Origin: an uncultured Pseudomonadota bacterium
Lineage (GTDB): Bacteria > Myxococcota_A > Polyangia > Fen-1088
NCBI GenBank assembly: GCA_963847705.1
Contig: CAWKBC010000017.1
Span: 64,001 to 128,000 of the forward strand
DNA: 64,000 bases
Reading direction: 5' to 3'
Each line of letters begins with the position of its first letter. Position 1 is the stretch's first letter. This document shows, piece by piece, positions 37,701 to 54,502 of the stretch. The notes beneath the pieces are model-generated. The model worked only from the letters and a program-made list of their open reading frames with translations, ran no database searches and was not told where the DNA came from. The translations under genes were made by a program, and so were the position numbers.

Positions 37701-38677
37701 GAGGCCAGCCCCCGGCCGGTCAGCTTGGCGAAGACGTCGGCCAGCGTGGGGCGAGACGTCGCCAGGCTGGCCAGCCGCCCGCTGGGGAAGAGCTCAGCGA
37801 TGCGCGGGACCACCTCGGCGCCGCGCGGCGCTTCGAGCACCACGTCTCCGTCGAGAACACGGCCGGGGAGGTTCAAGCGCGCGGCGATGGTGTCGCGGAG
37901 CTCCTCGGGGCGCTCGCCGCGGACGCGAATGACGTCGCCGGCCACGCGCGCGCGCAGCTCGTCGGGCGTGCCGACGGCGGTCAGCTTGCCCCCGTCGAGG
38001 ATGGCGATCCGGTGGCAGCGCTCGGCCTCCTCGGGCTGGTGCGTGGTGACGATGACCGAGAGGCCGCGCGTCGCCACCAGCGAGACCAGCTGATCCCAGA
38101 TGCGGCGCAGCGCCTCGGGATCGACGCCGCGCCCGGGCTCGTCGAGCAGCAACAGCGACGGATCGTGCAGGAGGACGCGCGCGATCTCGATCCGCCGCCG
38201 CATCCCGCCCGAGTACTTGGCCGCCGCCTCGTCGGCGCGATCGCCGAGCTCCATGAGCGCCAGCGCGGCCTCGATCCGCTGGGCCGCCAGGGTGCGCGGC
38301 AGACCGTAGAGCGCGGCGCCGAGCCGGAGGTTCTCCCGGCCGGTCAGCTTGAGGTCGAGGCTCGGCTCTTGAAACACCACGCCGAGCCGCGCGCGGTAGC
38401 GGGCGTCGCCGCCGTCGGTTGGCTGGCCGTCGAGCGCCAGCGTTCCGGCGTGGGGCGGGATGAGGCCCGCCAGCAGACGAAAGGCGGTGGTCTTGCCGGC
38501 GCCGTTCGGACCGAGGAGGCCGAAGATCTCGCCAGGGGCAACGTCGAAGCTGAGGCCGTCGAGGGCGGTGCGCTCCTTGAACCGCCGGGTGAGGCCGGTC
38601 GCCCGAAGCCGAGGCACCCCGTCGATGGCCAAGCGCTGGGGCGCGCCCTGCGGCGCCGAAACGGCGACCGCGGTCAT
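37697..38677 (-). CDS. ABC transporter ATP-binding protein (DrrA-like)
   Basis: GPNGAGKTT, YSGGMRRR, LLLDEP; ATG at 38677. Confidence 0.93.
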   Translation of the reverse strand: MTAVAVSAPQGAPQRLAIDGVPRLRATGLTRRFKERTALDGLSFDVAPGEIFGLLGPNGAGKTTAFRLLAGLIPPHAGTLALDGQPTDGGDARYRARLGVVFQEPSLDLKLTGRENLRLGAALYGLPRTLAAQRIEAALALMELGDRADEAAAKYSGGMRRRIEIARVLLHDPSLLLLDEPGRGVDPEALRRIWDQLVSLVATRGLSVIVTTHQPEEAERCHRIAILDGGKLTAVGTPDELRARVAGDVIRVRGERPEELRDTIAARLNLPGRVLDGDVVLEAPRGAEVVPRIAELFPSGRLASLATSRPTLADVFAKLTGRGLAS

Positions 38678-40506
38678 GCGATCGTCCTGTCGATCACCAG
38701 CGCCACGAACAGCAGGGTCAGGTAGACGATCGAGTAGAGAAACAACGATCGCGCCCAGGCGTTGGCCGCCGCGCGACGGAACCCCGCCGCCGCCCAGGCG
38801 ATGAACACCGCGCCCAGCAACGCCGCGCAGGCCAGGTAGCCAAGTCCCGCCACCCGCAGGGGCTCGAGGGCGATCGTCGCCGCCACCAGGCCGACGGAGA
38901 AGAGCACGATGGTGGCGCGCGTGGCGCGCGTGGAGATCGCCAGCGGGAGCACCTTGAAGCCGGCGCGCGCGTAGTCGGCCGCGCGGTAGGTGGCGATCGC
39001 CAGGAAGTGGGGGATCTGCCAGAGGAACAGGATCGAGAAGAGCGCCAGCCCCGGCGCGTCGAGGCGACCGGTGACCGCCGTCCAGCCCATGAGCGGCGGC
39101 AGCGCGCCCGGCACCGCGCCCACGAAGAGCGCGATCGCGGAGTGGCGCTTGAGCGGCGTGTAGACGACCACGTAGCTGCCGAGCGCGGCCAGGCCCAGGA
39201 TCCCGGTCAAGAGGTTGCCGCCCAGAAAAACCAGCGGCACCGCGGTGCAGGCGCAGAGGGTGCCGAACGCCAGCGCCGTCTCGGGCGAGAGCGTCGCGCG
39301 CGGCAGGGGGCGGTCGCGCGTCCGCTCCATCAGCGGATCGACGTCTCGCTCGAGGTACATGTTGAAGGTGTTCGAGGCGGCGACCAGGAGCGCGGTGCCG
39401 ATGAGGGTCATGATCGCGCGCCAGCCGGCGATCTGCCCGGGCGCCAGCCAGAGGCCGCCGGCGAAGGTGATGATCACCATCCCGGTGATGCGCGGCTTGG
39501 CCAGCGTCACCACCGCGCGGAACCAGGCCAGGCCCGGGAAGCTGGGGAGGCCGTCGGGGCGCGCCGCGAGCACGGTGAGCACCATCGCGGCGAGCAGCGC
39601 GGTCGCCACCGCCAGGTGACTCTCGACGGTGAGGAGGTCGAGGAACGACTGCACCGAGCGAATCCCCAGCCAGATCTGGACGCCGACGAGGACCGGCGCG
39701 AGGACCGCCAGCAGCCGGAGGGCGGGCCGCGTCGCCCGCCGCAGCGTCACGATCGACGAGGCGAGGACCAGGCAGGCGACCGTGACGGCGTTCAGGCGGT
39801 GCAGCGCCTGGATGAGGACCGTCGGGTGCGCGTGCGGCCAGAGCGAGCCCCGGCAGAGCGGCACGTCGGTGCAGGCCAGCGCCGCGCCCGAGTGGCGAAC
39901 CAGGCCGCCCAGCACCATCTGGACGTAGACCGCGACGGCGGTGATGAGCGCCAGCCGACCGACGACCGGCGGGGCCGCCGCGCGCGCCACCGCGGGCCGC
40001 GATCGGACCGCGATGTAGAGCACCGTCATGAAGAACAGCAGCGACGTCGCCGTGTGCGCCGTCGATATCGGCGTGGGAAGCCGCAGGAGCACGGTGATCC
40101 CGCCGAGCAGCGCCTGCGCGAACACCAGCCCGACCGCCAGCCACCCGAAGGGACGCAGGCGGCGCAGCCCCGCGTCGCGCGTCCCGGTCAGCAAGCCAGC
40201 CAGGACCAGGGTCAGGATCACCACCGTGCCCGCCGCCAGACGGTGGCTGTGCTCGACCAGCACGCCGCCCTCCATCTTGGGCATGAACGTCCCGTAGCAG
40301 GTCGGCCAGTCGGGGCAGGCCAGGCTGGAGCCGGTGCCGTGGACCAGGCCACCGATCAGGATCAGCAGATAGGTGGCGACGGCCGTGGCCACGGCGAACC
40401 GGTGAATCCACGGCCGACCAGCCTGCTGCGGTGCCGGCGCCGGTGGCGTCGGCGGTACCGCTGGCTCTGCGCCTGAAAGCTGCGCAGCGCTACCTTCACT
40501 TGGCAT
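38674..40506 (-). CDS. ctaB: Fused heme A synthase (CtaA/COX15) and heme O synthase (CtaB/CyoE)
   Basis: N-half: GLVHGTGSSLACPDWPTC, EHSHR. C-half: KPRI, NMYLERDVD..MERT..RPLP, YTPLKR, WQIPHF. Confidence 0.92.
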   Translation of the reverse strand: MPSEGSAAQLSGAEPAVPPTPPAPAPQQAGRPWIHRFAVATAVATYLLILIGGLVHGTGSSLACPDWPTCYGTFMPKMEGGVLVEHSHRLAAGTVVILTLVLAGLLTGTRDAGLRRLRPFGWLAVGLVFAQALLGGITVLLRLPTPISTAHTATSLLFFMTVLYIAVRSRPAVARAAAPPVVGRLALITAVAVYVQMVLGGLVRHSGAALACTDVPLCRGSLWPHAHPTVLIQALHRLNAVTVACLVLASSIVTLRRATRPALRLLAVLAPVLVGVQIWLGIRSVQSFLDLLTVESHLAVATALLAAMVLTVLAARPDGLPSFPGLAWFRAVVTLAKPRITGMVIITFAGGLWLAPGQIAGWRAIMTLIGTALLVAASNTFNMYLERDVDPLMERTRDRPLPRATLSPETALAFGTLCACTAVPLVFLGGNLLTGILGLAALGSYVVVYTPLKRHSAIALFVGAVPGALPPLMGWTAVTGRLDAPGLALFSILFLWQIPHFLAIATYRAADYARAGFKVLPLAISTRATRATIVLFSVGLVAATIALEPLRVAGLGYLACAALLGAVFIAWAAAGFRRAAANAWARSLFLYSIVYLTLLFVALVIDRTIA

Positions 40507-41281
40507 CGTAAGCGAAGCTCACCTCGGTCGGTTTGTCGGCGGCCACGGTCGCCTCGGCGGTCTTGGCGCCGTAGCGCTCCTGCCAGGCGGTCAGGGTGTA
40601 CTTGCCGGCCGGCACGCCGGTGATCTTGAAGTGGCCGTCCGGACCGGTGACGGCGAAGAAGGGATTGGCGTTGACCACCACGTAGCCGGTCATCCAGGGG
40701 TGCACGTCGCACTTGAACTTGAGGATGTCGCCGGCGTCGCCGATCTTGCGCGCGATCGGCGGCAAGCCCGGGATCTCCGCCTGGTTGAACAGCGTCGAGG
40801 GCCCCTTGTAACCGTGCACGTTGTGCAGCGTCTGATCGCCGTTGCGGATGGAGATCATCTGTCCGGCCACGATCGCCTGGACGCGCGGGCGGTACATGCA
40901 GGCGCTCTGATCGAGCGCGGCGGGCGTCGCCGGCGGCTCGTAGTGGCCGGTCGCTCCGTCGGTGATGCGGACGACGACGTTGGCCAGGCCACCGGCCGGG
41001 CCCACGACGACCTCTTCTTCCCGTGTCGGCGTCTTGGCGCAGAACGGATCGGCGTCGCGCTTGGTCATCGCCATCTCGGGCGGCGTGCCGCTCAGCTTCA
41101 CCGTCCCCTCGATGACGCCGTTTCCAGCCGGAGGCGCCGCGGCGGCCGCCGGGACGGTCGCGGCGGTGGCGCCCGGCGCGACCGGCGCGGGGGCCGGGGC
41201 CGGCGGGGCCTCCGTCTTCTGGCAGGCGCCCGCCATCGTCGACACGGCGAGCGCAAAAATGGCCAGGCCCCGCTTGATCAT
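40496..41281 (-). CDS. Lipoprotein with cupredoxin-like and carboxypeptidase-regulatory-like domains
   Basis: Lipobox MAGAC; LDQSACMY.P, HNVH, CDVHPWM, VPAGKYTLTAW; TTGACG-N17-TAGCAC ends 7 nt before ATG 41281. Confidence 0.85.
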   Translation of the reverse strand: MIKRGLAIFALAVSTMAGACQKTEAPPAPAPAPVAPGATAATVPAAAAAPPAGNGVIEGTVKLSGTPPEMAMTKRDADPFCAKTPTREEEVVVGPAGGLANVVVRITDGATGHYEPPATPAALDQSACMYRPRVQAIVAGQMISIRNGDQTLHNVHGYKGPSTLFNQAEIPGLPPIARKIGDAGDILKFKCDVHPWMTGYVVVNANPFFAVTGPDGHFKITGVPAGKYTLTAWQERYGAKTAEATVAADKPTEVSFAYDAK

Positions 41282-41342
41282 GGTCGTCGTGCTAACAGGC
41301 GCCCGCCGACCCGTCAAGCACCGCAATGGCTGGGCCGGCGAG

Positions 41343-42056
41343 TCAGGCTCCGTTCGCCACCCGACCGGCCGCGGCGAGCAGCAGGTCGATCCCTTCGGGG
41401 GTGGCGGAAAAGTAGCCTCGGATGCGGAGCTGGCGGTCGATCAAGACCAGGTTCTCGCCGTGGAAGATCTGCCAGAAGTCGCCCGTGCCGTCGCCCCCGG
41501 TGTTCACCTTCTCCTTGCCCATGCCGACCTTGAAGCCGCCCACCACGGCGGCCTCGATGGCCTCGGCGGGGCCGGTCAGGAACGACCAGGCGAGCGGGTT
41601 CGCGCCGTAACGGGCCCCGTACTCGGCCAGTCGCGCCGGGGTGTCTCGCGCCGGATCGACGGAGATCGACACCAGGTGAAAATCGGGCCCCAGCTTGCGC
41701 GCCCGGCGGCCCACCTCGGCCATCTTCTGGCTGAGCAGCGGGCAGGCCTCCTGGCAGGAGGTGAAGATGAAGTCGGCGACCCAGACCCTCCCCGTGAGGT
41801 CGCGGGTGCCGAACGGCTGCCCGCGCTGATCGGTCAGCGTGAAGGCGGGCAGGGTGCCCAGGATCGCGGGCGAGGCCCCGAGGCGCCGGGTGACGGAGCG
41901 GAAGATCGGCACCCCGAACAGCAGCCCCAAGAGCGCCGCCCAGATGAGGGGATTGCCCGCCAGGCGCGCGGCGGCCGGTTGCCGGCGCGGGCGAAACCCG
42001 ACAGAGATTTCCGGGGAAGAACGTTCGGCGCGATCCGCTGAGGCGGGGGTGCTCAC
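41343..42056 (-). CDS. SCO1/SenC copper chaperone
   Basis: FIFTSCQEACP (CxxxC), SISVDP..DTP, WSFLTG, distal His in IFHG. Confidence 0.93.
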   Translation of the reverse strand: MSTPASADRAERSSPEISVGFRPRRQPAAARLAGNPLIWAALLGLLFGVPIFRSVTRRLGASPAILGTLPAFTLTDQRGQPFGTRDLTGRVWVADFIFTSCQEACPLLSQKMAEVGRRARKLGPDFHLVSISVDPARDTPARLAEYGARYGANPLAWSFLTGPAEAIEAAVVGGFKVGMGKEKVNTGGDGTGDFWQIFHGENLVLIDRQLRIRGYFSATPEGIDLLLAAAGRVANGA

Positions 42057-42144
42057 GCGTTGGTCTTCCGCCGCGTTCGGGCTTCTGTCAAGCGTCCGTC
42101 CTTGACCGGCGAGCTCTGCTCGTTTACCTCATTGAAGGTCGCTC

Positions 42145-42570
42145 ATGCGTCTGCGTGCTGGAAATCACGGGGCTTCGGCCGCCGCCAAGTCGCTCACCGT
42201 CGCGGTGATGGCGGCAGCGATGGCCGCCCAGCTGCTGTCGATCTCGCACGAGATGACGGTGCGCCACTTCCGCTGCGCCGAGCACGGCGAGCTGACGCAC
42301 GTCGCGGCGCTCACCGCGCCGGCCGCGGAGCTGCCCGCGCCGCGCGCGAATGACGCGTTCCGCGCGGGCGACGCCGAAGCGGCCGACGCGCACGAGCACT
42401 GCGGCGTCACCTTCACCGTCGAAGGGAGCTCCTGCACGCCCTCGATGGGGAGCGTGACCAGCGCGGCACCTCCGGCGGCGGCGCCTCGTCCGGCGCCCTC
42501 GGCCGTCTCCTGGCACGAGCGGTCGTTCGTCCTGGCGAGCGCCCCCAAGACCTCACCTCCCTCGGCGTAG
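42145..42570 (+). CDS. His/Cys-rich leader protein 1 ending in APKTSPP (putative metal-sensing arrest peptide)
   Basis: Hydrophobic N-segment, SHE.TVRHFRCAEHGELTH, HEHC, FVLASAPKTSPPSA; close paralog at 46262. Confidence 0.8.
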   Translation: MRLRAGNHGASAAAKSLTVAVMAAAMAAQLLSISHEMTVRHFRCAEHGELTHVAALTAPAAELPAPRANDAFRAGDAEAADAHEHCGVTFTVEGSSCTPSMGSVTSAAPPAAAPRPAPSAVSWHERSFVLASAPKTSPPSA

Positions 42571-42607
42571 CGACAGATCGTCCTCGCGCGCGGCAGAGGC
42601 GAAGATC

Positions 42608-42654
42608 GGGCTCGCCTTCGGGGCTCGCCTTCGGGGCTCGCCTTCGGGCTCGCC
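42608..42654. repeat. 13-bp tandem repeat GGGCTCGCCTTCG x3 plus partial, in the leader-to-receptor spacer
   Basis: Copies start at 42608, 42621 and 42634. Confidence 0.9.
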
Positions 42655-42698
42655 GTGCGTTTCCCAGATCCATTGCCGTCGGAGGCGTCGAGGTCCCA

Positions 42699-45303
42699 GT
42701 GCTTTGTTCTGTCCGGTCCCGCACAATTCTGCCCATCGTTCTGGCGCTCGCGCTGGACGTCGGTGCGCCTGCCGTGACGCGCGCGGAGGCGCCGGCGCCG
42801 CGGCTGCAGCCGCCAGTGGTGATTGAGGAGAACCGTCCGGCGTATCCCGCCGAGGCGCTACCCACCCGACCGACCGGCGAGGTCTCGGTGACGGCGACGG
42901 TCAATGTCGCCGGCGAGGTGAGCGGCGTCGAGCTGGCCCAGGGGGTGGCACCCCCGCTCGATCGTGCGGCGCTGGACGCGGCCACCCGGTGGCGGTTTCG
43001 GCCCGCCACCCGCGACGGAGTCCCCGTCGCCAGCCGCGTCCAGCTGCTGTTTCACTTCGAGCCACCACCAGTCGTCGCTCCGACAGTGACTCCGGCGGCG
43101 TCGGCAGCCGCCCCGCCGCCCGGGGCGGTGTCGACCACCTTACCCACGTCGAACCCCGGCGTGCCGGCGCTTCCCGAGATCGCTCCCGTGCCGGCATCGA
43201 AACCGGGAGAAGCCGCGGCGATTGACGTCGACGTGCGAGGCCGCCGACAACAGGAGCCGAACCGCGGCGCCTCCGATTCTCGAGATCCAGGTCGGGCAGC
43301 TGGCGGTCATCGCCAATCAGAAGGCCTCGGACATCCTGCAGCTGGCGCCGGGGATCTTCATCGCCAACGAAGGAGGCTCCGGCCACGCCGATCAGGTCTT
43401 CCTGCGCGGGTTCGACGCCGAGCAGGGGCAGGCGATCGAGTTCACCGTCAATGGTGTCCCGATCAACGAGGTCGACAACACCGACGGCCACGGCTACGCC
43501 GACACGCACTTCATCATTCCCGAGCTGGTGAAGAACCTGCGGGTCATCGAGGGGCCGTTCAGCCCGCGCCAGGGGGACTTCGCCGAGGCCGGGAGCGCCG
43601 ACTACCAGCTGGGGGTGCCGGACCGACGGCTCGAGCTCAGCGCCAGTTACGGCTCGTTCAACACGCGCCGCACCCTGGCGCTCTGGGCGCCCGAGAACGA
43701 GCGCGAGGGGACCTTCGCGGCGGCGCAGTTCTTCCAGAGCGACGGGTTCGGCACCAACCGGGCCAGCACCAACGGGAGCGCGATGGCCGAGTACGAAGGA
43801 GATCTGGGGGCGCGCGGCTCGTGGCGGCTGCTCGGCACCGCTTACGGCACCCATTACCAGAGCGCCGGCGTCGTGCGGGCGGACGACGTGGCCTCCGGCC
43901 GGATCGGCTATTACGGCACCGAGGACGCCGCCCAGGGGGGCGACGCCCAGCGCTACACGCTCTCCTTCGATCTGCAGAGCCCGAGCGACAAGGACTTCCT
44001 GGCCCAGCAGGTGTTCCTCACCTGGCGCTCGCTCCGCATCGACGAGGACTTCACCGGCTTCCTGCTCGACAACCAGGAGCTCGGCCAGAGCTATCACCCC
44101 CAGCGCGGCGACATGATCGAGCAGGACTACACCGCGTTCACCGCCGGCGCGCGCGGCAGCGACAAGCGGACCGGCTTTTTCTTGGGGCGGCCTCAGTCCC
44201 TCGAGGTCGGTTACTACGCCCGCTACGATCACACCACCCCGGAGATCCAGCGTCTGCGCTTCGGGACCCAGAAACCCTACGCCGTCGACGAAGACCTCAC
44301 CACGGACATCATGAACCTGGCGCTCTATGCCGATCTCGACCTGCGACCGACGCGCTGGCTGACCGTGCGCGGCGGGATCCGGCAGGAGTACTTCGACTAC
44401 AACGTTCTCAACGCCTGCGCGACCGGAGCCGACGGGTTCATCCAGAACACCCCACTCAACCCGATCTGCCCCTCGTACGACAGCACCGGGCCCCGGCTGC
44501 CGACCGAGCGCGACACCGCCACCGCCCTGGTGACCGAGCCGAAGGTCACGGTGCTGGCCCAGGTGGCGCGGCCGCTGACCCTGACGGCCAGCTACGGCCA
44601 GGGGGCGCAGTCCCTCGACGCCGTCTACATCACCCAGAACGAGCAGGCGCCATTTTCGAGCATCAGTGCGGCCGAGGGGGGCGCCATCTACCACCAGCGC
44701 TTCATTCCGGTCGATCTGACCGCGCGCGCCGTGGGGTTCTACACCCACGTCAGCCGCGATCTGATCTTCAACCCGACCTTGGGCCGTTTGACGACCTCGA
44801 CCGGCACCACCCGGGACGGCGGGCTGGTCTCGCTGCGCGCGACCGGTCGTTGGTTCGACGAGCTCGCTTCGGCCACCTACGCGCATGCCACCTACGACGT
44901 CGACGGCACGCTGGTCCCCTATGTGCCGTCGGTGATCGCGCGCTCCGACACCGCGGTGTTCGGACCGCTCGGCCGGCGTCGCTTCTTTGATCATGGGTTG
45001 ACCGGGACGGCCGGCTTCGCCGTCAACTTCGTGGGGCCGCGGGCCTTGCCGTTCAGCCAGACCGCGGCGTCGACGCTGGAGCTCGACGCCTCGGCCAGCG
45101 TGCGGTGGAGCTTCCTGCGCCTCGGCCTCCTGGCCCAGAACCTCACCGACGCGCGCTATCCACTGACCGAGCTCTACTACGCCTCGAACTTCAACAGCCG
45201 CGCGGAACCGACGCTGGTTCCGACCGAGCACTTCAGCGCGGCGCCGCCGTTCTCGCTGCTGGCGACGGTGTCGCTGCTCTTCGACGCGGGGAACGAGCGA
45301 TGA
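42699..45303 (+). CDS. TonB-C-domain / TonB-dependent receptor fusion (one extra base near 43277 splits the frame)
   Basis: N-terminal TonB_C (PAYPAEA...AALDAATRWRFRPA..DG.PV), plug (GHADQVFLRGFDAEQG...NGVPIN...GHGYADTHFIIPE) and beta-barrel. Removing one T from CCGATTCTC joins the two ORFs. Confidence 0.88.
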
Positions 45304-46265
45304 GGCTCGGCACCTGGGGGCTGGCGCTGCTGGCGCTGGGCGCGGTGGAGTGCGGCGGAACGACCGGCGGCAACTTGATCCAGATGCCGCTCCTGGTGGG
45401 CGGGATCGCGCGGGACGCCTCGCAGCCTTTCACCTTCGTCACCGGGCAGGGCTGGAACGTCACGCTCACCCAGGCCGAGGTGGTGTTGGGGCCACTCTAT
45501 TTCAACATCGATGCGCCCTCGACGGCCTCGTTTCGGAGCGGCGTGGTGATCGTCCAGGCCACCCAGCAGTTCATCGTCGACATGCTCGATCCGACGCTCC
45601 AGAACGTTCCGGGCGGCGCCGACGGCGAGACGGGAACCGCCGTCTCGGTGGAGGTCGGATTTTATACGACGGTCAATCAGTACAACGACATGGCCCTGGT
45701 GGGCGCCGACGGAGGCGCCATGAAAACGCTGCCCGCGCCGCTGGCGGCCGACGGTCAGCAGGGGACGGCCTACCTGGCCGGGGAAGCGACCAAGCAGGGG
45801 GCGGTCGTCCATTTTGCCGGCCGGGTTCAGATCACCGGCGCGCTCGTCACGCAGGGCACGCCCATCGACTTTCTGGCGACGCTCACCGGCGCCTGCGCCG
45901 GCATCACGCCCCCCGCCTGTGGCCTGAAATTCACCACCACCAGCGGTCCGCTGCAGCTGCGGGTGAATCCCGCGGACTGGTTCAACCAGGCTGACTTTTG
46001 CAACGTGGTGCGGCCGCCACCGGTGCAGGCCGTCGGCGACGGCGGCCTGGGCGACGCAGGCGCTGGCGACGCGGGGCCAAGCGTCGTCTCCACTGGCCAA
46101 ACTGGCGACGCCGGCGTCGATGCGGGCACCCCTGCCGGCGCTCCCTGCGCCCCCACCGCGGGGACGGTTTACGACTGGACCGACACCAATCCGTTCAACT
46201 CGGCGGTGCTGCAGGGAATGAAGGGGAGCGCCGGGGTCTATCGCTTCAGCCTCGGTGGTCAATGA
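45300..46265 (+). CDS. Receptor-associated putative lipoprotein
   Basis: ATGA overlap; MRLGTWGLALLALGAVEC signal; GWNVTLTQA motif; DAG low-complexity repeats. Confidence 0.8.
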   Translation: MRLGTWGLALLALGAVECGGTTGGNLIQMPLLVGGIARDASQPFTFVTGQGWNVTLTQAEVVLGPLYFNIDAPSTASFRSGVVIVQATQQFIVDMLDPTLQNVPGGADGETGTAVSVEVGFYTTVNQYNDMALVGADGGAMKTLPAPLAADGQQGTAYLAGEATKQGAVVHFAGRVQITGALVTQGTPIDFLATLTGACAGITPPACGLKFTTTSGPLQLRVNPADWFNQADFCNVVRPPPVQAVGDGGLGDAGAGDAGPSVVSTGQTGDAGVDAGTPAGAPCAPTAGTVYDWTDTNPFNSAVLQGMKGSAGVYRFSLGGQ

Positions 46266-46684
46266 AGTGGCGCAGAAACCAGCGGTTTTCGTCCTCGGCG
46301 AAGTCGTTCGCCGTCGCGATGACGCTGATCGCGACGGTCGCGCAGTTCTTTGCGCTCTCGCACGAGGTCACGGTCCGGCACTTCCGCTGCGCCGAGCACG
46401 GCGAGCTGACGCACGTCGCAGCCACCTCGGGCGACTCCCCGCTGCCGGTCCCGCCGCCCACGGACGCGCTCCGGCGCGGAGAGGCCGCCGCGCCCGACGC
46501 GCACGAGCACTGCGCCGCGGCGTTCACCCTCGAGGGCGGTTCGTCGTCGCCGTTTGTCGGCGGCGCGGCTCGCCTCGCTCCGCCGCCGCAGGACTGTCCG
46601 CCGCCTCTCTTCCCTCTGGTCCGGGATCGCACCTTCGTCCTGGCCAGCGCGCCCAAGACCTCGCCTCCCGCCGTCCGCGCCTGA
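46262..46684 (+). CDS. His/Cys-rich leader protein 2 ending in APKTSPP
   Basis: ATGA-coupled to the upstream gene; same motifs as 42145-42570; 41 bp identical core (42265-42305 = 46379-46419). Confidence 0.8.
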   Translation: MKWRRNQRFSSSAKSFAVAMTLIATVAQFFALSHEVTVRHFRCAEHGELTHVAATSGDSPLPVPPPTDALRRGEAAAPDAHEHCAAAFTLEGGSSSPFVGGAARLAPPPQDCPPPLFPLVRDRTFVLASAPKTSPPAVRA

Positions 46685-46784
46685 CCGCGATCGCGTGCGC
46701 TCCCGGAGAGCCCGGACGGGAGGCGCACTCCAGTTCCCTTTACACCGGGCGAGACGGCGACCTGTGAATCGAATGGAGAGAGTG

Positions 46785-48053
46785 ATGAAGAACAAGACGA
46801 AAATGATGATGCTCGGGTCTGTGCTGGGTCCGCTGGCGGCGGCCGGTTGCGGGGGAAGCAGCAGCAGCTCCAACGGCAACGACCCCCAGAGCCCTCCGGC
46901 CGGAACCATGCTGACGGCGCCCACCATCAACTTCTCGATGACCTCGCCCAACACCCCGCTGTCGGTCCAGGTCACGTTCTCGGGAGAGACCTTGGGAATC
47001 AATGGCCTGCCATTTCAGCCGGTCAGTCAGGGAGATCCCTACTTCGTGGATGGCTGGAACATGACGATCGACGAAGACATCGTGGTGGTTGGCAACATCA
47101 CGCTCAATGCCATGCCGACCGAGGACCAGACCTGGTACGACATGGGTCCGCAAGTGGCCCACAAGGTGGGTCCCTACGTCTTTGATGCCCACCAGGCGGC
47201 CGGGTTCATCGGCAAGGACGGCATCGAGCCGGCCAGCCCGATGTTCGTCTTCAACAATGAGGACGACGGGTCGTCGTTCGATTCGAACCAGCGCTACGCC
47301 TTCTCTTACGACACGGTCGTGGCCGCTTATCCGGCCTGGAACCTGAACCTGACGTCGCAAGGGGAGGCCGACTACGACACGATGGTTTCGAACGGCTGGA
47401 ACAAATTCATCCGCGCCACCGCCACCTACGTCGGGACCGGGACCTACCCCGACCCCTCCGTGCAGGCGAAGTTCGCCGCTCTTCCGACCACCGTCAACTT
47501 CACGATGGGCTGGAACGACGCCACCTCCAACACCAACTGCGTCAACGCGGATCTCGGCCCCGAGGACGATCTGATGAACAGGGGCGTCGTCATCTTTCCC
47601 AACCAGGCCTCGGTCGCTCAGATCACGATGCACGTCGATCACCTCTTCTGGGACAAGCTGAAACAGGAGGGGGCGGCGCTGCGCTTCGATCCGATCGCGG
47701 CCTTCGCGCCGGCGGACACCAGCACCACGTCGTTCAGCCTCAACAGCTTCCACGCCCAACACCTGCTGGCGACCTTCGCCGATGGATCGCCCCTCCCGGA
47801 CCGGGCGCCCGACCAGCCGAATCCCTCGCCCAACGCTGGAGCGAACACCCCCGACGACGTCCAACCGAATCCGCTTCAGATCACCTTCAACCTCAACGGC
47901 GTCACCGCGCCGGACGGATCGGCCTTCCCCGACGACCTGGTGCAGTTCATGGCCTTCAGCGCGCAATCGCAGATGCACCTGAACGCCCAGGGGCTCTGTT
48001 ACATCAAGGGACAAAATCCCGCCGACCCCTATTACGCCCCGAGCGTTCAGTAG
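46785..48053 (+). CDS. Acidic, Asn/Gln-rich lipoprotein, possible metal-scavenging surface protein
   Basis: GGAGAG RBS; lipobox AAGC; HVDHLF and QMHLN...C motifs. Confidence 0.8.
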   Translation: MKNKTKMMMLGSVLGPLAAAGCGGSSSSSNGNDPQSPPAGTMLTAPTINFSMTSPNTPLSVQVTFSGETLGINGLPFQPVSQGDPYFVDGWNMTIDEDIVVVGNITLNAMPTEDQTWYDMGPQVAHKVGPYVFDAHQAAGFIGKDGIEPASPMFVFNNEDDGSSFDSNQRYAFSYDTVVAAYPAWNLNLTSQGEADYDTMVSNGWNKFIRATATYVGTGTYPDPSVQAKFAALPTTVNFTMGWNDATSNTNCVNADLGPEDDLMNRGVVIFPNQASVAQITMHVDHLFWDKLKQEGAALRFDPIAAFAPADTSTTSFSLNSFHAQHLLATFADGSPLPDRAPDQPNPSPNAGANTPDDVQPNPLQITFNLNGVTAPDGSAFPDDLVQFMAFSAQSQMHLNAQGLCYIKGQNPADPYYAPSVQ

Positions 48054-48062
48054 GACCACGAC

Positions 48063-49187
48063 ATGAGCGCGATGGAATCGGTCAAGGAGGTCCTGCTGGC
48101 CTCGGGCGCCGGGTGGGTGCTCTGGTTTTTGGGGGCGCTGTCCATGTCCAGCCTGGCGCTGGCGATGGAGCGCTGGCTCTACCTGCGCAAGCGCGGCGGC
48201 GATCTGGAAGCGCTGGCGCGGATGCTGGACGAGCAGCTGCGGGCCGGGGACTTCGCGCGCGCCCGCCAGTTGCTGGAGGCGAGCCCCGCGGTGGCGGCGC
48301 GCGTGGCGGACGCCGGGCTGCGGCTCGCCGAGCGCGGGACCGAGGCGGCGGAGAAGGCGATGGACAGCGCGGCGGCGCTGGAGCGCGGGCGGCTCGAGCG
48401 GGGGCTGGCGTTCCTGGCCACCATCGGAAACAACGCGCCCTTCGTCGGCCTGTTCGGGACGGTGGTCGGCGTCATCCACGCCTTCGAGGAGCTGGGGCAC
48501 GCCGCCCCGGGCCACGGCGCGACCTCGGCGGGGCAGGTGGCCTCGCAGGCGGTGATGGCGGGGATCGCCGAGGCGCTGGTGGCGACCGCGGTCGGCATCG
48601 CCGTCGCGCTGCCGGCGGTGGCCACCTACAACTATCTGCAGCGGCGGGTGACGTCGCTGCTCTCCGGGACCGACGTGCTGTCGAGCCTGGTGCTGGCCTA
48701 CGTCGCCGACGACAGCGCGCGGACCGCGCGCGGCGCCGGTGCTGCGGGAGGTGTCAGGTGGCGGGCAGCTAGCGGCGGCGACAACGGCGGGCTCATCCAG
48801 GGCATCAACGTCACGCCGCTGGTCGACGTGATGCTGGTGCTGCTGGTGATCTTCGTGGTGACCGCCAAGATCATCGTGACGCCGGCGGTGCCGCTCGATC
48901 TGCCGCACGCCGCCCACGGCGAGGAGGTGCAGGTGGTCCTGTCGATCATCCTGCCGGTGCGCGGCCCCATGCTGGTCAACGGCGCGGCGGTGACCGACGA
49001 CGCCGGATTCGAGGGGCTCGCCCGCGCGGCCTTCGCCGGGAACCCCGAGCTGCGCGCGGTCATCCAGGCCGACGGCGAGGTGCCCCACCGCAAGGTGGTC
49101 CACCTGCTCGACGAGCTGAAGGGGGTGGGCATCACCCGCGTCGCCTTCGGCGCGCTCCCCGACGCTCCGGCGTCGCCCCGGCCGTGA
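48063..49187 (+). CDS. exbB: ExbB and ExbD in a single reading frame (true fusion or indel-joined genes)
   Basis: ExbB motifs (ATIGNNAPFVGLFGTV, GIAEALVATAVG) followed by ExbD motifs (INVTPLVDVMLVLLVIF, IQADGEV). Confidence 0.85.
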   Translation: MSAMESVKEVLLASGAGWVLWFLGALSMSSLALAMERWLYLRKRGGDLEALARMLDEQLRAGDFARARQLLEASPAVAARVADAGLRLAERGTEAAEKAMDSAAALERGRLERGLAFLATIGNNAPFVGLFGTVVGVIHAFEELGHAAPGHGATSAGQVASQAVMAGIAEALVATAVGIAVALPAVATYNYLQRRVTSLLSGTDVLSSLVLAYVADDSARTARGAGAAGGVRWRAASGGDNGGLIQGINVTPLVDVMLVLLVIFVVTAKIIVTPAVPLDLPHAAHGEEVQVVLSIILPVRGPMLVNGAAVTDDAGFEGLARAAFAGNPELRAVIQADGEVPHRKVVHLLDELKGVGITRVAFGALPDAPASPRP

Positions 49188-49191
49188 CGGC

Positions 49192-50052
49192 ATGAGCGAG
49201 CGCGAGCCGACGTCCGAGATCGACGAAGCCCCGGGCCAGGTGCAAGGGAAGGAACAGGGGAGAGAACCGGGGGAGCTCCGCATCGTCGACCTGGTGTTCG
49301 CGGGCGAGCCGGGCGGACGGGTGCGTCGCCTCGCCATCGGTGGCGCCTGCGTCGTCGCGCTCTACGCCGGTGCGATCCTGGTGGTGGGGCACTTCGGGCG
49401 ATCAGGCGCGTCGATCTGCGCGGAGATGGCGGCCCGCGTGCACGACGCGATCGCGGCCGAGCGCGCCGTCGACGTCACGCCGCCGCCCAAACCCCCGCCG
49501 CCGGCCGAGTCGCCGCCCACGCCGCACGTGGCGGAGCCGGCGCTCCGGGAGCACGTCCACACGGCGGCCGCGCACCACGCGCCAGCCGCGCCGGCGCAGG
49601 CGGGCCAGATTGCCGCCGCCACCACCTCACCCGTCGACTTCACCGGCTCGGCGTTCGTGGTCGGGTCGGGGCCGTCGTACGCCGGGGGCGCCACCACCAG
49701 CGCGGGGACGAACCGCAAGCCGGCCACCGGCGCCGTCGCGCCCAACGGCACCGGCGACGGCGCGGCGCGCAGCCGGGCGCGCCCCGTGTCGCTGGATCAG
49801 GCCGCCTGGAACTGCCCCTGGCCGGCCGAGGCCGACGCGCGTCAGGTCGATCAGGAGACGGTGGTCATCCGGGTGGCGGTCGGGACGGACGGGCGCGCCG
49901 ATCGGGTCGATGTCTTGCAGGATCCGGGATTCGGCTTTGGGCCGGCGGCGCGGCAGTGCGCGCTGGCCACGCGGTTCGGCGCGGCTCGCAACCCGGCCGG
50001 CGATCCGATCGCCGCGCTCTCACCGCCCATTCGGGTTCACTTCTTTCGATGA
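49192..50052 (+). CDS. tonB: TonB family energy transducer
   Basis: TM, Pro-rich linker, C-terminal WPAEA...VIRVAV..DG.A..V.V..DPGFGFG.AA. Confidence 0.8.
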   Translation: MSEREPTSEIDEAPGQVQGKEQGREPGELRIVDLVFAGEPGGRVRRLAIGGACVVALYAGAILVVGHFGRSGASICAEMAARVHDAIAAERAVDVTPPPKPPPPAESPPTPHVAEPALREHVHTAAAHHAPAAPAQAGQIAAATTSPVDFTGSAFVVGSGPSYAGGATTSAGTNRKPATGAVAPNGTGDGAARSRARPVSLDQAAWNCPWPAEADARQVDQETVVIRVAVGTDGRADRVDVLQDPGFGFGPAARQCALATRFGAARNPAGDPIAALSPPIRVHFFR

Positions 50053-50363
50053 GGCGCGCGCCGAACATTGGCCGGATCCTGGCGTCGGCGGCGCTCGCCG
50101 GCCTGGCCACGCTCGGCGGCTGCCACCGGCACACCGCCAGCGCCGCCGACTGCCGCGCCATCCTCGACCGCCTGGTCGCGCTGGAGCTGCAGGAGCAGGG
50201 GTTCCATGATCCGGCGCTGGTGCCGCGCTGGCAGGAGGAGCTGGCGCGCCGCTTCGACGACGATCTGCGCCGTTGCCGCGCCGTCCGTGTCGGCGACGAT
50301 CTCGCGGTCTGTCTGCGGGCCGCTCAGAACCCCGAGGAGATCGCGCACCATTGCGTGAAGTGA
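50049..50363 (+). CDS. Small Cys-rich lipoprotein
   Basis: ATGA overlap; lipobox LGGC plus four more Cys. Confidence 0.7.
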   Translation: MRRAPNIGRILASAALAGLATLGGCHRHTASAADCRAILDRLVALELQEQGFHDPALVPRWQEELARRFDDDLRRCRAVRVGDDLAVCLRAAQNPEEIAHHCVK

Positions 50364-50408
50364 TCCATCTCATAAATTGACGGGCGACCGGCGCCGAGCG
50401 ACGCCTCA

Positions 50409-50434
50409 CATCGCGACACTGGCGATGGTATGGT
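50409..50434 (+). promoter_or_regulatory. Inverted repeat CATCGC-N7-GCGATG next to a -10-like TATGGT upstream of the metal ABC operon (putative operator)
   Basis: Palindrome at 50409-50427, TATGGT at 50429-50434, start TTG at 50444. Confidence 0.4.
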
Positions 50435-50443
50435 CGCCGCGAT

Positions 50444-51263
50444 TTGTCGACGGTGAGCAGCTCTCCCACAACGTCCCCCACCGCGCCACGCCTCCCTGCG
50501 GGGGAGGGCCTCCTGCACGCGCGGGCGCTCACCGTCGGGTACGACGGCGTCCCGATCTTGCCCCCGCTCACGCTCACGGTCGGCGCGGGGGAGCTGTGGG
50601 CCGTCATCGGGCCGAACGGCGCCGGCAAGTCGACCTTCGTCCGCACGGCCCTCGGGCTCTCTCATCCCGTCGGCGGCACCATCGAGCGCCGGCCGGGCCT
50701 CCGCCTGGCTTACGTTCCGCAGCAGTCGGCCCTCGACGCCATCTTCCCGATCTCGGTCCTGGACTTCGTGCTCATGGGCCTGCAGGGGACCGACAATGTG
50801 ACGCTGGCGAACCCGCGGGCGTACTTCGGCCGCGCCCGCGCCGCGCTGGCGGAGGCGGGCGTCGAGGCGCTGGCGCGGCGGCAGCTTCGCGATCTCTCGG
50901 GCGGGCAACGACAGCGTGTGCTCATGGCGCGGGCGCTGGCGACCGACGCCGATTCTCATCTTCCTCGACGAGCCGACCGCCGCGCTCGACGCATCCTCCG
51001 AACAGGAGGTGCTCGATCTCATTCAGCGTCTCCGCCAGGTGCGGGGCGCCGCGGTCGTGATGGTGACCCACCTCGTCGAGGACGGCCTCGAGCGGGCCGA
51101 CCACGCGCTCCTGCTCGATCGCGATCACCGGGTGGCGTTCGCGGCCACCGCCGCGGCGATGCGCTCCGCGCCCGACTTCGAGAACATCTACGCCCGCTTC
51201 GTCGGACGCCGGGCCCAGGACCGGACCCAAGAAGAGATGCAAAACAAACGGGAAACGCCGTGA
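50444..51263 (+). CDS. znuC: Zn/Mn-type ABC transporter ATP-binding subunit (frameshift near 50953)
   Basis: GPNGAGKST, AYVPQ, LSGGQRQRV, then LIFLDEPT..LD and MVTH in the next frame; restored by removing one T in CCGATTCTC. Confidence 0.82.
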
Positions 51264-52267
51264 GCGACACCGCCGCCACCTGGCACGACCTCTTCGCCAA
51301 CATTGGAATCTTCAGGGACGCCATCCTGGCGGGCGGCCTGGCCGGGGCCCTGCTCGGTTTCCTCGGGGTGCACGTGGTGTTGCGGCGGATGGTGTTCGCG
51401 TCGTCGGCCATCGCCCAGGCCGCCGCCCTCGGCGTCGCGCTCTCGTTCTGGGTGCCGGCCGTCATCGATCCGCTCGGCCACGCCGCCGGTCACGTGGCCG
51501 GCCCGGGCGGGCACGTCATCACGTCACCCCTCTTTCAGCCCGTGTTGTGGGCGATCGCCGCCTCCCTGCTCGCCACCCTGGTGTTCATCGCCAACCCGGT
51601 GCGCCTGCACCTGACGCGCGAGAGCATGCTGGGATTCGTCTTTCTGGCCAGCGGCGCCGGCGCGGTGATCATCGGAGATCGGATCACCCAGGACGCCCAC
51701 GATCTGACCACCATCCTCTTCGGCAGCGCGGTGGTGGTGCAGACCAGCGACCTCTACTGGGTCGGGGCGGCGACCGTGCTCCTGCTGGGCGGCCATCTGG
51801 TGCTCTGGCGGGCGCTGCTGTTCGTCGGCTACGATCCGCTCGGCGCCGAGGTGCAGGGGATGCCCGTGCGTGCGCTCAACGGGTTTCTCTTCGTGTCGGT
51901 CGGGCTGGCCGTCGCGCTTTGCACGCGGGCGCTGGGGGCGCTGCCGGTGTTCGCGTTCAGCGTGCTGCCCGCGATGACCGCGCTGGCGCTGACCTCGCGC
52001 ATCGGCCTCTGCTTTGTCCTGGCGACGGTGTTCGGCGCTTTCTCGGGCCTGGCGGGCTACGCCGTCTCGTTCCGGGCCGAGCTGCCGGTGGGCGCAACCG
52101 AGACGGCGATGGCGGCGGCGCTGCTGGCGGCGGCGCTCGCCTGGCGTTACGTCGGCGCCGAGCGCGATCGCCGGCGGGCGCGCCAGGGCGCCTCCCAGGC
52201 TGCCGCGACGGGCGGCTCGAAGAGCGCCCCCGAGACGGTCTCGGTGAAAGGCGGACCCCATGCTTAG
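51260..52267 (+). CDS. znuB: Zn/Mn-type ABC transporter permease
   Basis: LGVHVVLRRMVF, ILFGS, YDPLGA..QG; His-containing loop; many TMs. Confidence 0.85.
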   Translation: MSDTAATWHDLFANIGIFRDAILAGGLAGALLGFLGVHVVLRRMVFASSAIAQAAALGVALSFWVPAVIDPLGHAAGHVAGPGGHVITSPLFQPVLWAIAASLLATLVFIANPVRLHLTRESMLGFVFLASGAGAVIIGDRITQDAHDLTTILFGSAVVVQTSDLYWVGAATVLLLGGHLVLWRALLFVGYDPLGAEVQGMPVRALNGFLFVSVGLAVALCTRALGALPVFAFSVLPAMTALALTSRIGLCFVLATVFGAFSGLAGYAVSFRAELPVGATETAMAAALLAAALAWRYVGAERDRRRARQGASQAAATGGSKSAPETVSVKGGPHA

Positions 52268-53567
52268 CGCGGTGATCGTCTGTCTGTTGGCGCAGCAGAT
52301 CGATCAAAGCGCGCTCGAAAAGGCCATGGCCGCGGACGCCGCCGCCAAGGCGGCCACGGGGCCGGCTGCGACGTCGACGTCGACGCCCGCCGGGCCGCCG
52401 GTCCCGGGCCTGACGCCGGCACCCGAGGGCGTCGCGGTGGATGTCACGCCGGGCGGCGGAAGCTGGGCCGCCCAGCAAGGCGCTCGCGCTCCCGGCGGCA
52501 GCCTCCTCAACCCGGCCCTCTCGTTCATCTTCGACGGCAGCTTCGGGTACTACGGCGCGCACACCGGTGACTTCGCCGCGCTCGGGTTGCCCGCGGCGGG
52601 CGACGATCCGTCCGTGACCCGGCAAGGGTTCGGCGTCCAGGAGATCGAGCTCGCCGCCCAGTCGGCGATCGATCCCTACTTCGAGGGGGCGATCTTCCTC
52701 ACCATCCCCAACCTCGACGGTCTGGAGGTCGAGGAGGCGTACCTCGTCACCACCTCGCTCCCGTTCAACCTGCAGATCAAGGCGGGGACCTTCCGCTCGA
52801 AGTTCGGACGCAACAACGGCCAGCACCTGCACGTGCAGTTCTTCACCCGGCGCCCGCTCATGACCGCGCTCCTCTTCGGTGAGGACGGATTGCGCGGGCC
52901 GGGCGCGCAGGCCTCGGTCCTGCTGCCGCTGCCCTGGTTCGCCACGCTCTACGTGGAGTCGTTCAGCATCACGCCACCCGACGATCTGACGGGTGTCGCG
53001 ACGTTTGGCGGGGGCGTGCGGCTCACCCCCAACAACCTGACCTACACGGCGGAGCTCGAGCAGTTCTTCGAGCTCGCCGAGTCGCACTCGCTGCTGGTGG
53101 GTCTCGACTTTGCGACCGGCCGCTCGGTCGACTGCACGATGGCCGCCCCCTGTGTCCCCCTCACCTTGGACGGTCCGCGCAGCTTTCTCTATGGCGCCGA
53201 CCTCTATTACAAATGGAAGCCGGCCAACGTCGCCCAGAGCTACGCCAGCTTTCAGTGGACCACCGAGTTCTACGCCCGCACCCTGGCCGACGGGGGGCCC
53301 ACCGAGGGGGCCGGCTACAGCGAGGCGGTCGTGCAGATCGACCGGCGCTTCTTCCTGGGGGGACGATTCGATCTGACCGGCTTGCCGAGCGGCCCCGACA
53401 TCCCGCGGCGCTACGGCGGCTCCGCCTCGCTCACCTTCACGCCGAGCGAGTTCTCGCGGCTGCGCCTCTACGTCCAGGAGCTCGGCGGCCCCGGCGTGGC
53501 CGCGACCACCGTCGGGTTCTTGCAGGCCGAGTACGCAATGGGCGCGCACGGCGCTCACCCCTTCTGA
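52260..53567 (+). CDS. Outer-membrane beta-barrel protein of the type found with zinc ABC operons
   Basis: NPALSFI, QEIEL...IDPYF, EEAY, FGRNNGQHLH, SEFSRLRL, C-terminal GAHGAHPF. Confidence 0.8.
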   Translation: MLSAVIVCLLAQQIDQSALEKAMAADAAAKAATGPAATSTSTPAGPPVPGLTPAPEGVAVDVTPGGGSWAAQQGARAPGGSLLNPALSFIFDGSFGYYGAHTGDFAALGLPAAGDDPSVTRQGFGVQEIELAAQSAIDPYFEGAIFLTIPNLDGLEVEEAYLVTTSLPFNLQIKAGTFRSKFGRNNGQHLHVQFFTRRPLMTALLFGEDGLRGPGAQASVLLPLPWFATLYVESFSITPPDDLTGVATFGGGVRLTPNNLTYTAELEQFFELAESHSLLVGLDFATGRSVDCTMAAPCVPLTLDGPRSFLYGADLYYKWKPANVAQSYASFQWTTEFYARTLADGGPTEGAGYSEAVVQIDRRFFLGGRFDLTGLPSGPDIPRRYGGSASLTFTPSEFSRLRLYVQELGGPGVAATTVGFLQAEYAMGAHGAHPF

Positions 53568-53581
53568 TAGGAGATCTGCCC

Positions 53582-54502
53582 ATGCGCCTCGGATCCAAGC
53601 TCACCGCTCTCTTCCTGGCGGGCGCGATGCTGCTCGGCGCGCGGAGCGCCTCGGCCAAGCTGCGGGTGGTCGCCACCATCGAGACGCTGGCCGATCTCTG
53701 CCGCCAGGTCGGCGGCGATCGGGTCGAGGTCACCTCGCTCTCGCACGGTTACCAGGATCCGCACTTCGTGGAGGCCAAGCCCTCGCTGGTGCTCACCCTC
53801 AACCGCGCCGACGCGCTGGTCTACGTCGGGCTCGACCTCGAGATCGGCTGGCTCCCGCCGCTGGTGCAGCAGTCGCGGAACCCGCACATCCAGCGCGGGC
53901 AGCCGGGGAACATCGACGCCTCGACCGGCATCAAGGTCGAGGACGTGCCGAACATCCCCGCCGATCAGCTGCGCGCCCTCGGCGACATCCACCCGCTCGG
54001 CAACCCGCACTACTGGATCCCGCCCAAGAACGCCCGGGGGATCGCGCGCGTCCTGGCGCAACGATTCAGCGAGCTCGACGTCGCGGGGACGGCGGCCTAC
54101 CAGGCCGGCCTGGCCGCGTTCGAGCAGCGCCTCGACAGCAAGGAGAAGGAGTGGGACAGGGCCGCGGCGCCGCTGCACGGCCTCAATATCGTCACCTATC
54201 ACAAGAGCTGGTCGTACGTGGCCGAGTGGCTCAAGATGCAGGAGGTCGGCTACATCGAGCCGAAGCCGGGGATTCCGCCCACCGCCAACCACACCGCGCA
54301 GCTCATCGAGCTCATGCGCAAGTCGAACGTGAAGCTGGTGATCGTCGAATCCTTTTACCCGAGCAGCCTGGCCCGCTTCGTCGCCGAAAACGGGCACGCC
54401 CGCCTGGTGAGCGCCCCCTCCGACGTCGGCGCGGCCCCAGGCATCAAGACCTACTTCGAGCTGGTCGACGCGGTGATCGCCGCGTTCGTGGGCGGCAGGT
54501 AA
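53582..54502 (+). CDS. znuA: Cluster A-I metal-binding protein
   Basis: QDPHFVE, GNPHYW, TYHKSWSY, IEPKPGIPPT. Confidence 0.9.
   Translation: MRLGSKLTALFLAGAMLLGARSASAKLRVVATIETLADLCRQVGGDRVEVTSLSHGYQDPHFVEAKPSLVLTLNRADALVYVGLDLEIGWLPPLVQQSRNPHIQRGQPGNIDASTGIKVEDVPNIPADQLRALGDIHPLGNPHYWIPPKNARGIARVLAQRFSELDVAGTAAYQAGLAAFEQRLDSKEKEWDRAAAPLHGLNIVTYHKSWSYVAEWLKMQEVGYIEPKPGIPPTANHTAQLIELMRKSNVKLVIVESFYPSSLARFVAENGHARLVSAPSDVGAAPGIKTYFELVDAVIAAFVGGR

Follow-up and report, generated by a model that had tools for sequence, protein, structure and literature searches.

A Leader Peptide Whose Last Codons Are Predicted to Sequester the Shine-Dalgarno Region of a TonB-Dependent Receptor Gene in Polyangia

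We analyzed a stretch of 64,000 nucleotides (nt; called the window here) from an uncultured bacterium of the Polyangia (assembly GCA_963847705.1, contig CAWKBC010000017.1, positions 64,001 to 128,000), in which a small open reading frame (ORF), leader 1, precedes the gene for a TonB-dependent receptor. In computed folds, the last codons of leader 1 pair with the Shine-Dalgarno (SD) region of the receptor gene, and in distant homologs the two arms of this helix are adapted to each other. We consider it probable that the system is a translational attenuator of the CutF or SecM kind, acting on an uptake operon of zinc or manganese type. An initial annotation had proposed translational attenuation from the complementarity between the leader end and the ribosome-binding site (RBS). 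Sequestration of the RBS by the leader end was supported by ensemble folding, by its recurrence in homologs, by the fit between cognate arms and compensatory changes in distant homologs, and by the effect of masking a ribosome footprint, but the proposed identity of the anti-SD did not hold at this locus. The features at the center of the analysis are as follows.

42145..42570, + strand: leader 1, an ORF of 141 residues with an N-terminal hydrophobic helix, His/Cys residues, and the tail APKTSPP-SA-stop
42400..42402, + strand: codon of Cys86 (HxHC motif), 52 residues ahead of the first Pro of the Pro-Pro pair
42541..42561, + strand: codons for APKTSPP, a candidate motif for arrest, with the first of its Pro-Pro codons at 42556-58
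42549..42554, + strand: anti-SD arm GACCUC (Lys-Thr-Ser codons), partner at 42690-95; a consensus helix in a nine-member clade
42556..42567, + strand: inner 5' arm (Pro-Pro-Ser-Ala codons), with two competing registers against 42675-85
42571..42698, + strand: intergenic region of 128 nt, closed by the helix of leader end and RBS; 89-128 nt across the window's clade
42608..42648, + strand: 13-nt unit in three tandem copies, in the apical part of the fold
42675..42685, + strand: inner 3' arm with the upstream GGAGG, probably a non-working SD (from pair probabilities, clade alignment, and spacing)
42690..42701, + strand: likely SD GAGGU, spacer, and receptor GTG start (from reading frame, homolog starts, and alignment)
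42699..45303, + strand: TonB-dependent receptor with an N-terminal TonB-C domain (Pfam TonB_C and Plug)

The predicted helix at the window locus

In the minimum-energy fold of positions 42530-42720, the leader end pairs with the receptor RBS region and closes the 128-nt spacer. The initial annotation had listed three complementarities just ahead of the GTG at 42699 (GACCTC 42549-54 with GAGGTC 42690-95, CCTCC 42556-60 with GGAGG 42681-85, and CGGC 42563-66 with GCCG 42675-78); all three are present and nested in that order, but they carry very different weights in the ensemble. GACCUC:GAGGUC dominates (~0.99), with a pair probability of 0.98-1.00 in three folding spans of 191-401 nt, falling to 0.50 in a fold of the full 656-nt leader region. 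CCUCC:GGAGG (0.31-0.33) and CGGC:GCCG (0.24) are minor registers, and a shifted inner register, 42564-67 with 42677-80, reaches 0.72-0.76. The tandem 13-nt unit of the spacer occurs in fewer copies or not at all in relatives; it is always apical and leaves the closing helix unharmed.

The receptor start is where the initial annotation had placed it: GTG 42699 is the first start past an in-frame stop and aligns with the starts of eight close homologs. At 42690-93, GAGG stands 5 nt from the start, a spacing that more genes of the genome share than any other (41 ATG genes); the spacing of 13 that separates the upstream GGAGG from the GTG occurs in three genes. The canonical 16S tail CACCUCCUUU is present in the genome. 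Because GACCUC:GAGGUC dominates the fold, and because GAGG stands at a spacing of 5 and GGAGG at 13, the folding model points to the Lys-Thr-Ser codons (GACCUC), and not the Pro-Pro codons, as most likely the working anti-SD at the window. The CCT-CCC used for Pro-Pro had been thought to be preserved as an anti-SD. Both leaders of the window do use CCT CCC, and CCT is rare (4.0% of Pro codons, and the first codon of 91 of 1323 Pro-Pro pairs, in crudely called genes of this genome), but CCUCC:GGAGG as the working anti-SD here was ruled out by its pair probability, by the 13-nt spacing, and by alteration of the upstream GGAGG in 2 of 9 clade members (L046 and L014). A role for CCUCC at this locus is further countered by synonymous recoding, which leaves the pairing of the clade unweakened (L042: 7.5 native versus 8.3 recoded). 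The two leaders had also been offered as parallel evidence; they share CCT-CCC, but they are paralogs and thus not independent, and leader 2 pairs weakly.

Folding with and without a ribosome mask had been suggested as a check on the attenuation model. We forced 32 nt around the first Pro to be unpaired and took the cost of opening the SD and GTG as the readout. At the window, masking cut this cost from 9.4 to 5.6 kcal/mol, versus 9.3 for a control mask placed upstream. A sliding mask had an effect only when placed between -15 and +15 nt relative to the first Pro, with a peak at -15 to 0. Rfam covariance models gave no meaningful match on 41900-47000, and for lack of such a match a riboswitch or known cis-regulatory RNA at the locus was set aside.

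The helix and the leader family in homologs

Three sets of homologous loci were compared. Set 1 holds close relatives: 120 loci plus the window gave 119 leader rows, of which 76 were left once we had taken out repeats, cases lacking downstream sequence or a called start, three whose start was in doubt, and the class of leader 2. These 76 loci were clustered into 46 representatives, and the 44 with spacers of up to 300 nt were folded. Set 2 consists of 39 distant loci (38 with the motif), of which 34 have starts picked by eye, a choice made after the folds were known for about half of the loci. Set 3 consists of 40 new distant loci (39 with the motif) under an automatic start rule fixed in advance, which removed 13 and left 26, two of them near-identical.

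The pairing recurs in all three sets. We counted a locus as paired when the leader end took up 4 or more of the 12 RBS nt, which was so in 31/44 loci of set 1, 29/34 of set 2, and 25/26 of set 3, versus 44/356 pairs of neighboring same-strand genes, called crudely, in this genome. In four clade alignments from set 1, the leader end closes the SD each time, but the register differs: clade E and the window's clade use GACCUC:GAGGUY, clade B uses CCUCC:GGAGG, and clade C uses CCUUCGGC:GCCGAAGG. One further alignment brings to five the clades in which the leader end closes the SD. Native codons out-pair synonymous recodings in set 1 (5.5 versus 4.2 nt, p 1.5e-4), and CCT is the first Pro codon of the Pro-Pro pair in 19/46 set-1 tails versus 10/87 such pairs within leader bodies. 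Masking lowered the mean opening cost from 9.7 to 8.4 kcal/mol in set 1, from 12.6 to 7.9 in set 2, and from 11.3 to 8.4 in set 3, with drops of more than 1 kcal in 19/44, 27/34, and 20/26 loci versus 4/44, 7/34, and 9/26 for the control mask.

Covariation, another check that had been proposed, is seen in the distant sets, as cognate fit and compensatory changes, but not among close relatives. The p-values in the distant sets are overstated, as kin are not independent. Cognate duplexes there are stronger than permuted ones, both in set 2 (-16.7 versus -13.9 kcal/mol, p<5e-5; p 0.0009 for the 20 loci outside a 14-member short-spacer group) and in set 3 (-16.7 versus -13.6 kcal/mol, p<5e-5), and the advantage is retained with one locus per genus (n=36; -16.3 versus -13.0, p<5e-5) or per family (n=21; p 1.5e-4). 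It vanishes with shuffled RBSs, coding windows, or upstream arms, and in set 3 all four controls were null. In the 36 genera, native arms pair in 32/36, versus 53% of trials for recoded and 56% for swapped arms (p ~1e-6).

Many members of the distant sets have spacers of only 43-60 nt. In one genus with spacers of ~57 nt, the predicted fold is a three-way junction closed by a helix of 13 pairs; across 22 sequences, this helix is 89.9% paired, versus 32-52% when slid out of register. This helix has 13 two-sided changes versus 6.0 in shuffles (0/500), scored on the same sequences from which the structure was derived; two count-of-types covariation measures were not above shuffles in this genus. 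The third base of an Asn/Thr codon pairs with the first base of the start codon as C:G in 9 sequences and U:A in 6 (unpaired in 6), the third base of the Ser codon pairs as A:U in 13, G:U in 5, and G:C in 3, and that of a Pro codon as U:A in 13 and C:G in 4 (unpaired in 5).

The protein itself belongs to a large family. Leader 1 has 345 homologs at E<=0.001, the tail xPKTSPP followed by 0-4 residues occurs in 118 of the top 120, and the named homolog records are metagenome-assembled genomes (MAGs) of Polyangia/Myxococcales. A wider profile (A7) takes in 2221 proteins, with matches in 102 of 301 sampled genomes of the phylum Myxococcota. In 40 diverse members with identity down to 21%, the only invariant positions are H35, H41, C44, H47, G48, H83, C86, and the tail A-P-K-x-x-P-P, which persists at an overall identity of 21-29%. 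The last Cys lies 51-53 residues from the first Pro in 45/46 set-1 representatives (49-55 in 29/34 members of set 2 and 48-54 in 35/39 of set 3), whereas the spacing between Cys44 and Cys86 varies from 39 to 47 in set 1. An N-terminal hydrophobic stretch (15-residue Kyte-Doolittle mean of 2.05 in leader 1, and 1.6 or more in 96 of the 100 homologs that were scored) is accompanied in leader 1 by a helix predicted at residues 8-38, and a structure prediction (predicted local distance difference test score 63.8) gave the N-terminal helix and a small hairpin only.

Neither leader of the window had a Pfam match. DUF2946 (PF11162; gathering cut-off 23.7 bits) gave weak matches in 11 of the 40 diverse members, the best two (23.2 and 22.9 bits) spanning most of the model, and an atlas neighbor cluster at 0.92 carries DUF2946 in 15% of its members; in this genome, no DUF2946 protein scored above the cut-off. 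The CxxC metal motif is absent from the family (40 members), whose invariant His/Cys residues are arranged otherwise, and the homolog tails listed from the three sets include no RAPP C-terminus, having APKxSPP instead. Having neither CxxC nor RAPP nor a Pfam score above the cut-off, the leader is best classed as a distant DUF2946-like variant and not as a member. Of the filters for CutF-like proteins (Ozturk 2023), it passes those on length (<150 residues), tail (Pro-Pro in the last 15 residues), and neighbor (same strand, within 1000 nt), with 141 residues, Pro-Pro 2 residues from the end, and a 128-nt spacer; for a further filter, an N-terminal Sec signal peptide, the observations are the hydrophobic stretch and predicted helix given above. 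No APKxSPP leader is described in the parts of the literature that were available, and the full protein list of PMC9973294 may include such members.

Proposed mechanism and alternatives

In the mechanism that we favor, the last codons of the leader would lock the receptor SD region in a helix, so that the receptor is off, and the nascent leader would be exported or membrane-anchored through its N-terminal helix, by analogy with CruR, CutF, and SecM. When metal (most likely zinc) is scarce, the ribosome would probably stall on APKTSPP. CruR, as toeprinted, stalls with the Pro-Pro pair occupying the P and A sites (PMC12992588); with the first Pro likewise in the P site, the ribosome footprint would run from about 42541 to 42572 and cover all three 5' arms; the helix would melt, leaving the SD free and the uptake genes translated. 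Metal bound at the His/Cys site ~52 residues upstream would make the chain fold and pull the ribosome free, whereupon the leader would terminate, the helix would re-form, and the receptor would go untranslated. Rho polarity may add a transcriptional shut-off.

MifM-yidC2 works by an arrest near the end of the leader that opens an mRNA helix covering the SD of the next gene, and MifM senses protein export, not metal. In SecM-secA, too, arrest near the leader C-terminus unfolds a helix over the downstream SD, as proposed here (bioRxiv 10.1101/2025.02.05.636593); SecM monitors protein export through a pulling force, not metal. A metal-linked likeness is CutF-cutO of Rhodobacter capsulatus, which is DUF2946-like and shares with our locus a small leader, a C-terminal proline motif, and metal-binding residues, putative in ours; CutF is exported, and when its ribosome stalls, a stem-loop covering the SD of the gene that follows is melted (PMC9973294; bioRxiv 10.1101/2025.02.05.636593). 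CutF has CxxxC and PPP, senses copper, and turns on a detoxifying oxidase, and its stem-loop is described as intergenic. Our family differs from CutF in having a His-rich site (HxxCxEHG ... HxHC), an APKxSPP tail, an anti-SD formed by the tail codons themselves, and targets that are mostly importers.

In build, the leader resembles CruR (Bp2923) of Bordetella pertussis, a DUF2946/PF11162 upstream ORF of ~140 residues that, like ours, lies 5' of a TonB-dependent receptor gene, bfrG (PMC9426467). Both have a fixed spacing from Cys motif to C-terminal xxPP, a long GC-rich spacer, and presumably a stall that turns an importer on; CruR has an export signal, and export of the leader described here is putative (PMC9426467). 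CruR differs in having CxxC and RAPP 45 residues apart and in acting through Rho termination (PMC9426467), whereas our leader has no CxxC, no Arg at -2, a spacing of ~52, a neighborhood of zinc/manganese type, and a covarying anti-SD helix. More generally, upstream ORFs ending in RAPP or RGPP are small and secretory and, as here, have a C-terminal di-proline and precede genes for TonB-dependent receptors or metal homeostasis; a survey defined by those motifs would miss APKxSPP leaders (PMC12992588). We describe the family as one that works like CutF and SecM and is built like CruR. We infer arrest, metal, polarity, and export from CruR (PMC9426467) and CutF (PMC9973294; bioRxiv 10.1101/2025.02.05.636593).

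Several results weigh against translational attenuation by a metal-gated stall. Arg is essential in RAPP arrest peptides (PMC12992588); APKxSPP lacks this Arg, so that arrest on it is putative. Region stability, dropped as evidence for the helix, shows no excess over shuffles (z +0.48; 135/200 shuffles fold as well). In set 1, cognate leader ends and RBSs have no advantage (p 0.087), swapped arms do as well as cognate ones (5.6 versus 5.5, p 0.62), the 18 nt past Pro-Pro give no cognate advantage either (p 0.74), and leader ends pair as well with 376 other starts that carry GAGG as with their cognate RBSs; a cognate-specific fit among the window's order-level relatives was dropped on these null tests. 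Shuffling the spacer interior lowers pairing in set 1 only from 70% to 62%. In this set the peptide motif, through its Thr-Ser-Pro-Pro codons, supplies most of the pairing, and an anti-SD comes almost for free. The window's clade is an exception to the advantage of native over recoded codons (7.5 versus 8.3). The average gain from masking in set 1 is only 1.3 kcal, masking raises the cost in 2/9 members of the window's clade (it falls in 7/9), and the masked window RNA is able to refold over the SD. Leader 2 of the window has 2.9 nt paired, and masking opens nothing there. Tree-independent pairs are too few for a test (1-3 supported), and three members lie ahead of efflux genes of the resistance-nodulation-division (RND) type, so that polarity is either not uniform or not as drawn.

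The best surviving alternative, which we regard as unlikely, is that the stall acts as in CruR, chiefly by keeping Rho off a C-rich rut site, with control at transcription termination and the helix secondary. CruR, the importer-linked prototype, works through Rho with an intergenic region of 162 nt (PMC9426467). From -30 to +30 nt relative to the first Pro, our loci have more C than G (0.40-0.44 versus 0.27-0.28); the C/U-rich choice of codons suits an anti-SD and a rut site equally; spacers of 200-420 nt are common in set 1; and a scan of the window locus found no intrinsic terminator. However, a rut site is expected to be unstructured, whereas the C-rich stretch around Pro-Pro is predicted to be paired; a rut site leaves the cognate-specific fit and the compensatory RBS changes unexplained; and the short spacers of many members also argue against it.

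A slightly less likely alternative is that the helix is real and selected, but for unregulated translational coupling, in which any ribosome reaching the leader stop melts it for a short time and no metal-gated stall occurs. The 5' arm does run over the last codons and stop of the leader, the cognate signal in the 18 nt after Pro-Pro equals that in PKxSPP (36 genera), and the tail on which the putative stall would occur lacks the RAPP Arg. Coupling leaves unexplained, however, why APKxSPP is invariant at such low overall identity, why the His/Cys residues are invariant, and why their spacing to Pro-Pro is fixed. That the pairing is incidental, with C/U-rich Thr-Ser-Pro-Pro codons fitting any SD and the protein serving as a secreted metal chaperone or by another route, would accommodate the unexceptional region stability, the null cognate tests of set 1, and the 50% of trials in which recoded set-1 arms pair anyway, but is very improbable given that native codons beat recoded ones in set 1 and in the 36 genera, that distant members covary, and that registers move with codon changes across clades.

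Metal-gated leader peptides have so far been characterized for copper only, and the two prototypes differ in output, the importer-linked CruR acting by Rho termination and the detoxification-linked CutF by SD release. If translational attenuation is true of our locus, SD release would control an importer, probably of zinc, and the tail responsible would have no Arg, a residue considered essential for arrest of the RAPP type. A broader reading, which we put forward tentatively and with considerable doubt, is that the leader would be a zinc-sensing arrest peptide spread over the whole phylum, with APKxSPP as a stalling code free of Arg and the codons of the stall serving also as anti-SD; leader, helix, and RBS would form a portable module before TonB receptors, ZnuA/ABC (ATP-binding cassette) importers, and RND pumps, giving zinc control at the level of the ribosome, with a single Fur-family gene found and polarity set by the metal site. 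The short-spacer members (~57 nt), with a clean three-way junction and compensatory changes, would provide a compact construct for separating arrest motif, metal site, and helix.

Gene neighborhood and other features of the locus

The remaining features of the window locus are the following.

42102..42130, + strand: candidate sigma70-like promoter TTGACC-N17-TACCTC (from sequence), ending 14 nt 5' of the leader ATG
46262..46684, + strand: leader 2 (tail APKTSPP-AVRA), a paralog 52% identical to leader 1, 5' of a lipoprotein gene
48063..54502, + strand: remaining operon, encoding ExbB-ExbD, TonB, ABC ATPase/permease, an outer-membrane protein, and a ZnuA-family binding protein

The best NCBIfam matches of the ABC and binding proteins are to AztA/B/C and Mnt models, all below cut-off. 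Among 20 distant loci that were extended, with 58 of their 113 called proteins scanned, ZnuA and/or ABC-3 genes lie downstream in 13, TonB receptors in 4 (two by Pfam Plug and two by similarity to the window receptor), and RND efflux genes in 3. From this neighborhood and the His/Cys site, zinc is our best guess for the metal sensed; manganese, nickel, or cobalt are also candidates. A divergent SCO1/SenC gene, which shares an 88-nt gap with the leader promoter, keeps copper in view; the gene after it presumably encodes a protein like a fusion of heme A and heme O synthases, and the two lie within 38674-42056 on the - strand. The three loci with efflux genes (L244, L245, and L246) precede outer-membrane efflux/HlyD/AcrB genes and have 4.2, 0.1, and 7.7 nt of RBS pairing; two of them have an APKIGPP tail and an altered His/Cys site. 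They are possibly opposite-polarity versions of the system.

The pattern TTGAC-N16-19-TA occurs in 35/76 upstream regions of leader loci; a consensus promoter scanner reported no promoter at the window leader. No conserved operator-like palindrome was seen by eye upstream of the leader in close relatives. Three other loci (L133, L142, and L155) have palindromes like TGATAAT-N-GTTNTCA/TGA over the promoter region that resemble Fur-family boxes; the window showed no such palindrome. In the genome (G000, 84.7% complete), the search turned up one Fur-family gene.

The start of leader 2 overlaps the stop of the preceding lipoprotein gene (ATGA), an overlap that would couple translation of leader 2 to that gene within the operon. 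Leader 2 has weak SD pairing and a spacer with two possible folds. In the leader-2 class, at least 4 nt of RBS pairing is seen in 7/13.

The receptor reading frame breaks at ~43278, where intact homologs of 870-875 residues match in two frames with 70-97% identity. The ABC ATPase is frameshifted at ~50954 and thereby fused to the permease frame; close homologs are intact there. Both breaks fall at a GATTCTC stretch, and other MAG loci have similar breaks. We consider these frameshifts probable assembly errors. ExbB and ExbD (48063-49187) share one frame in the window and lie in two frames in L013 and L016.

The downstream start codons of set 1 are TTG in 29, GTG in 14, and ATG in 3 (n=46), and ATG is used in 18/34 members of set 2. 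Set-1 starts often have a C/T-rich spacer on their 5' side, which could pair with CAAGA of the Pro-Lys codons. In five set-1 loci (L001, L002, L006, L058, and L088), leader, spacer, and RBS abut an ABC ATPase gene with no receptor between, and in clade B the ABC ATPase directly after the module has receptor-like first few codons, as if the module had survived deletion of a receptor block.

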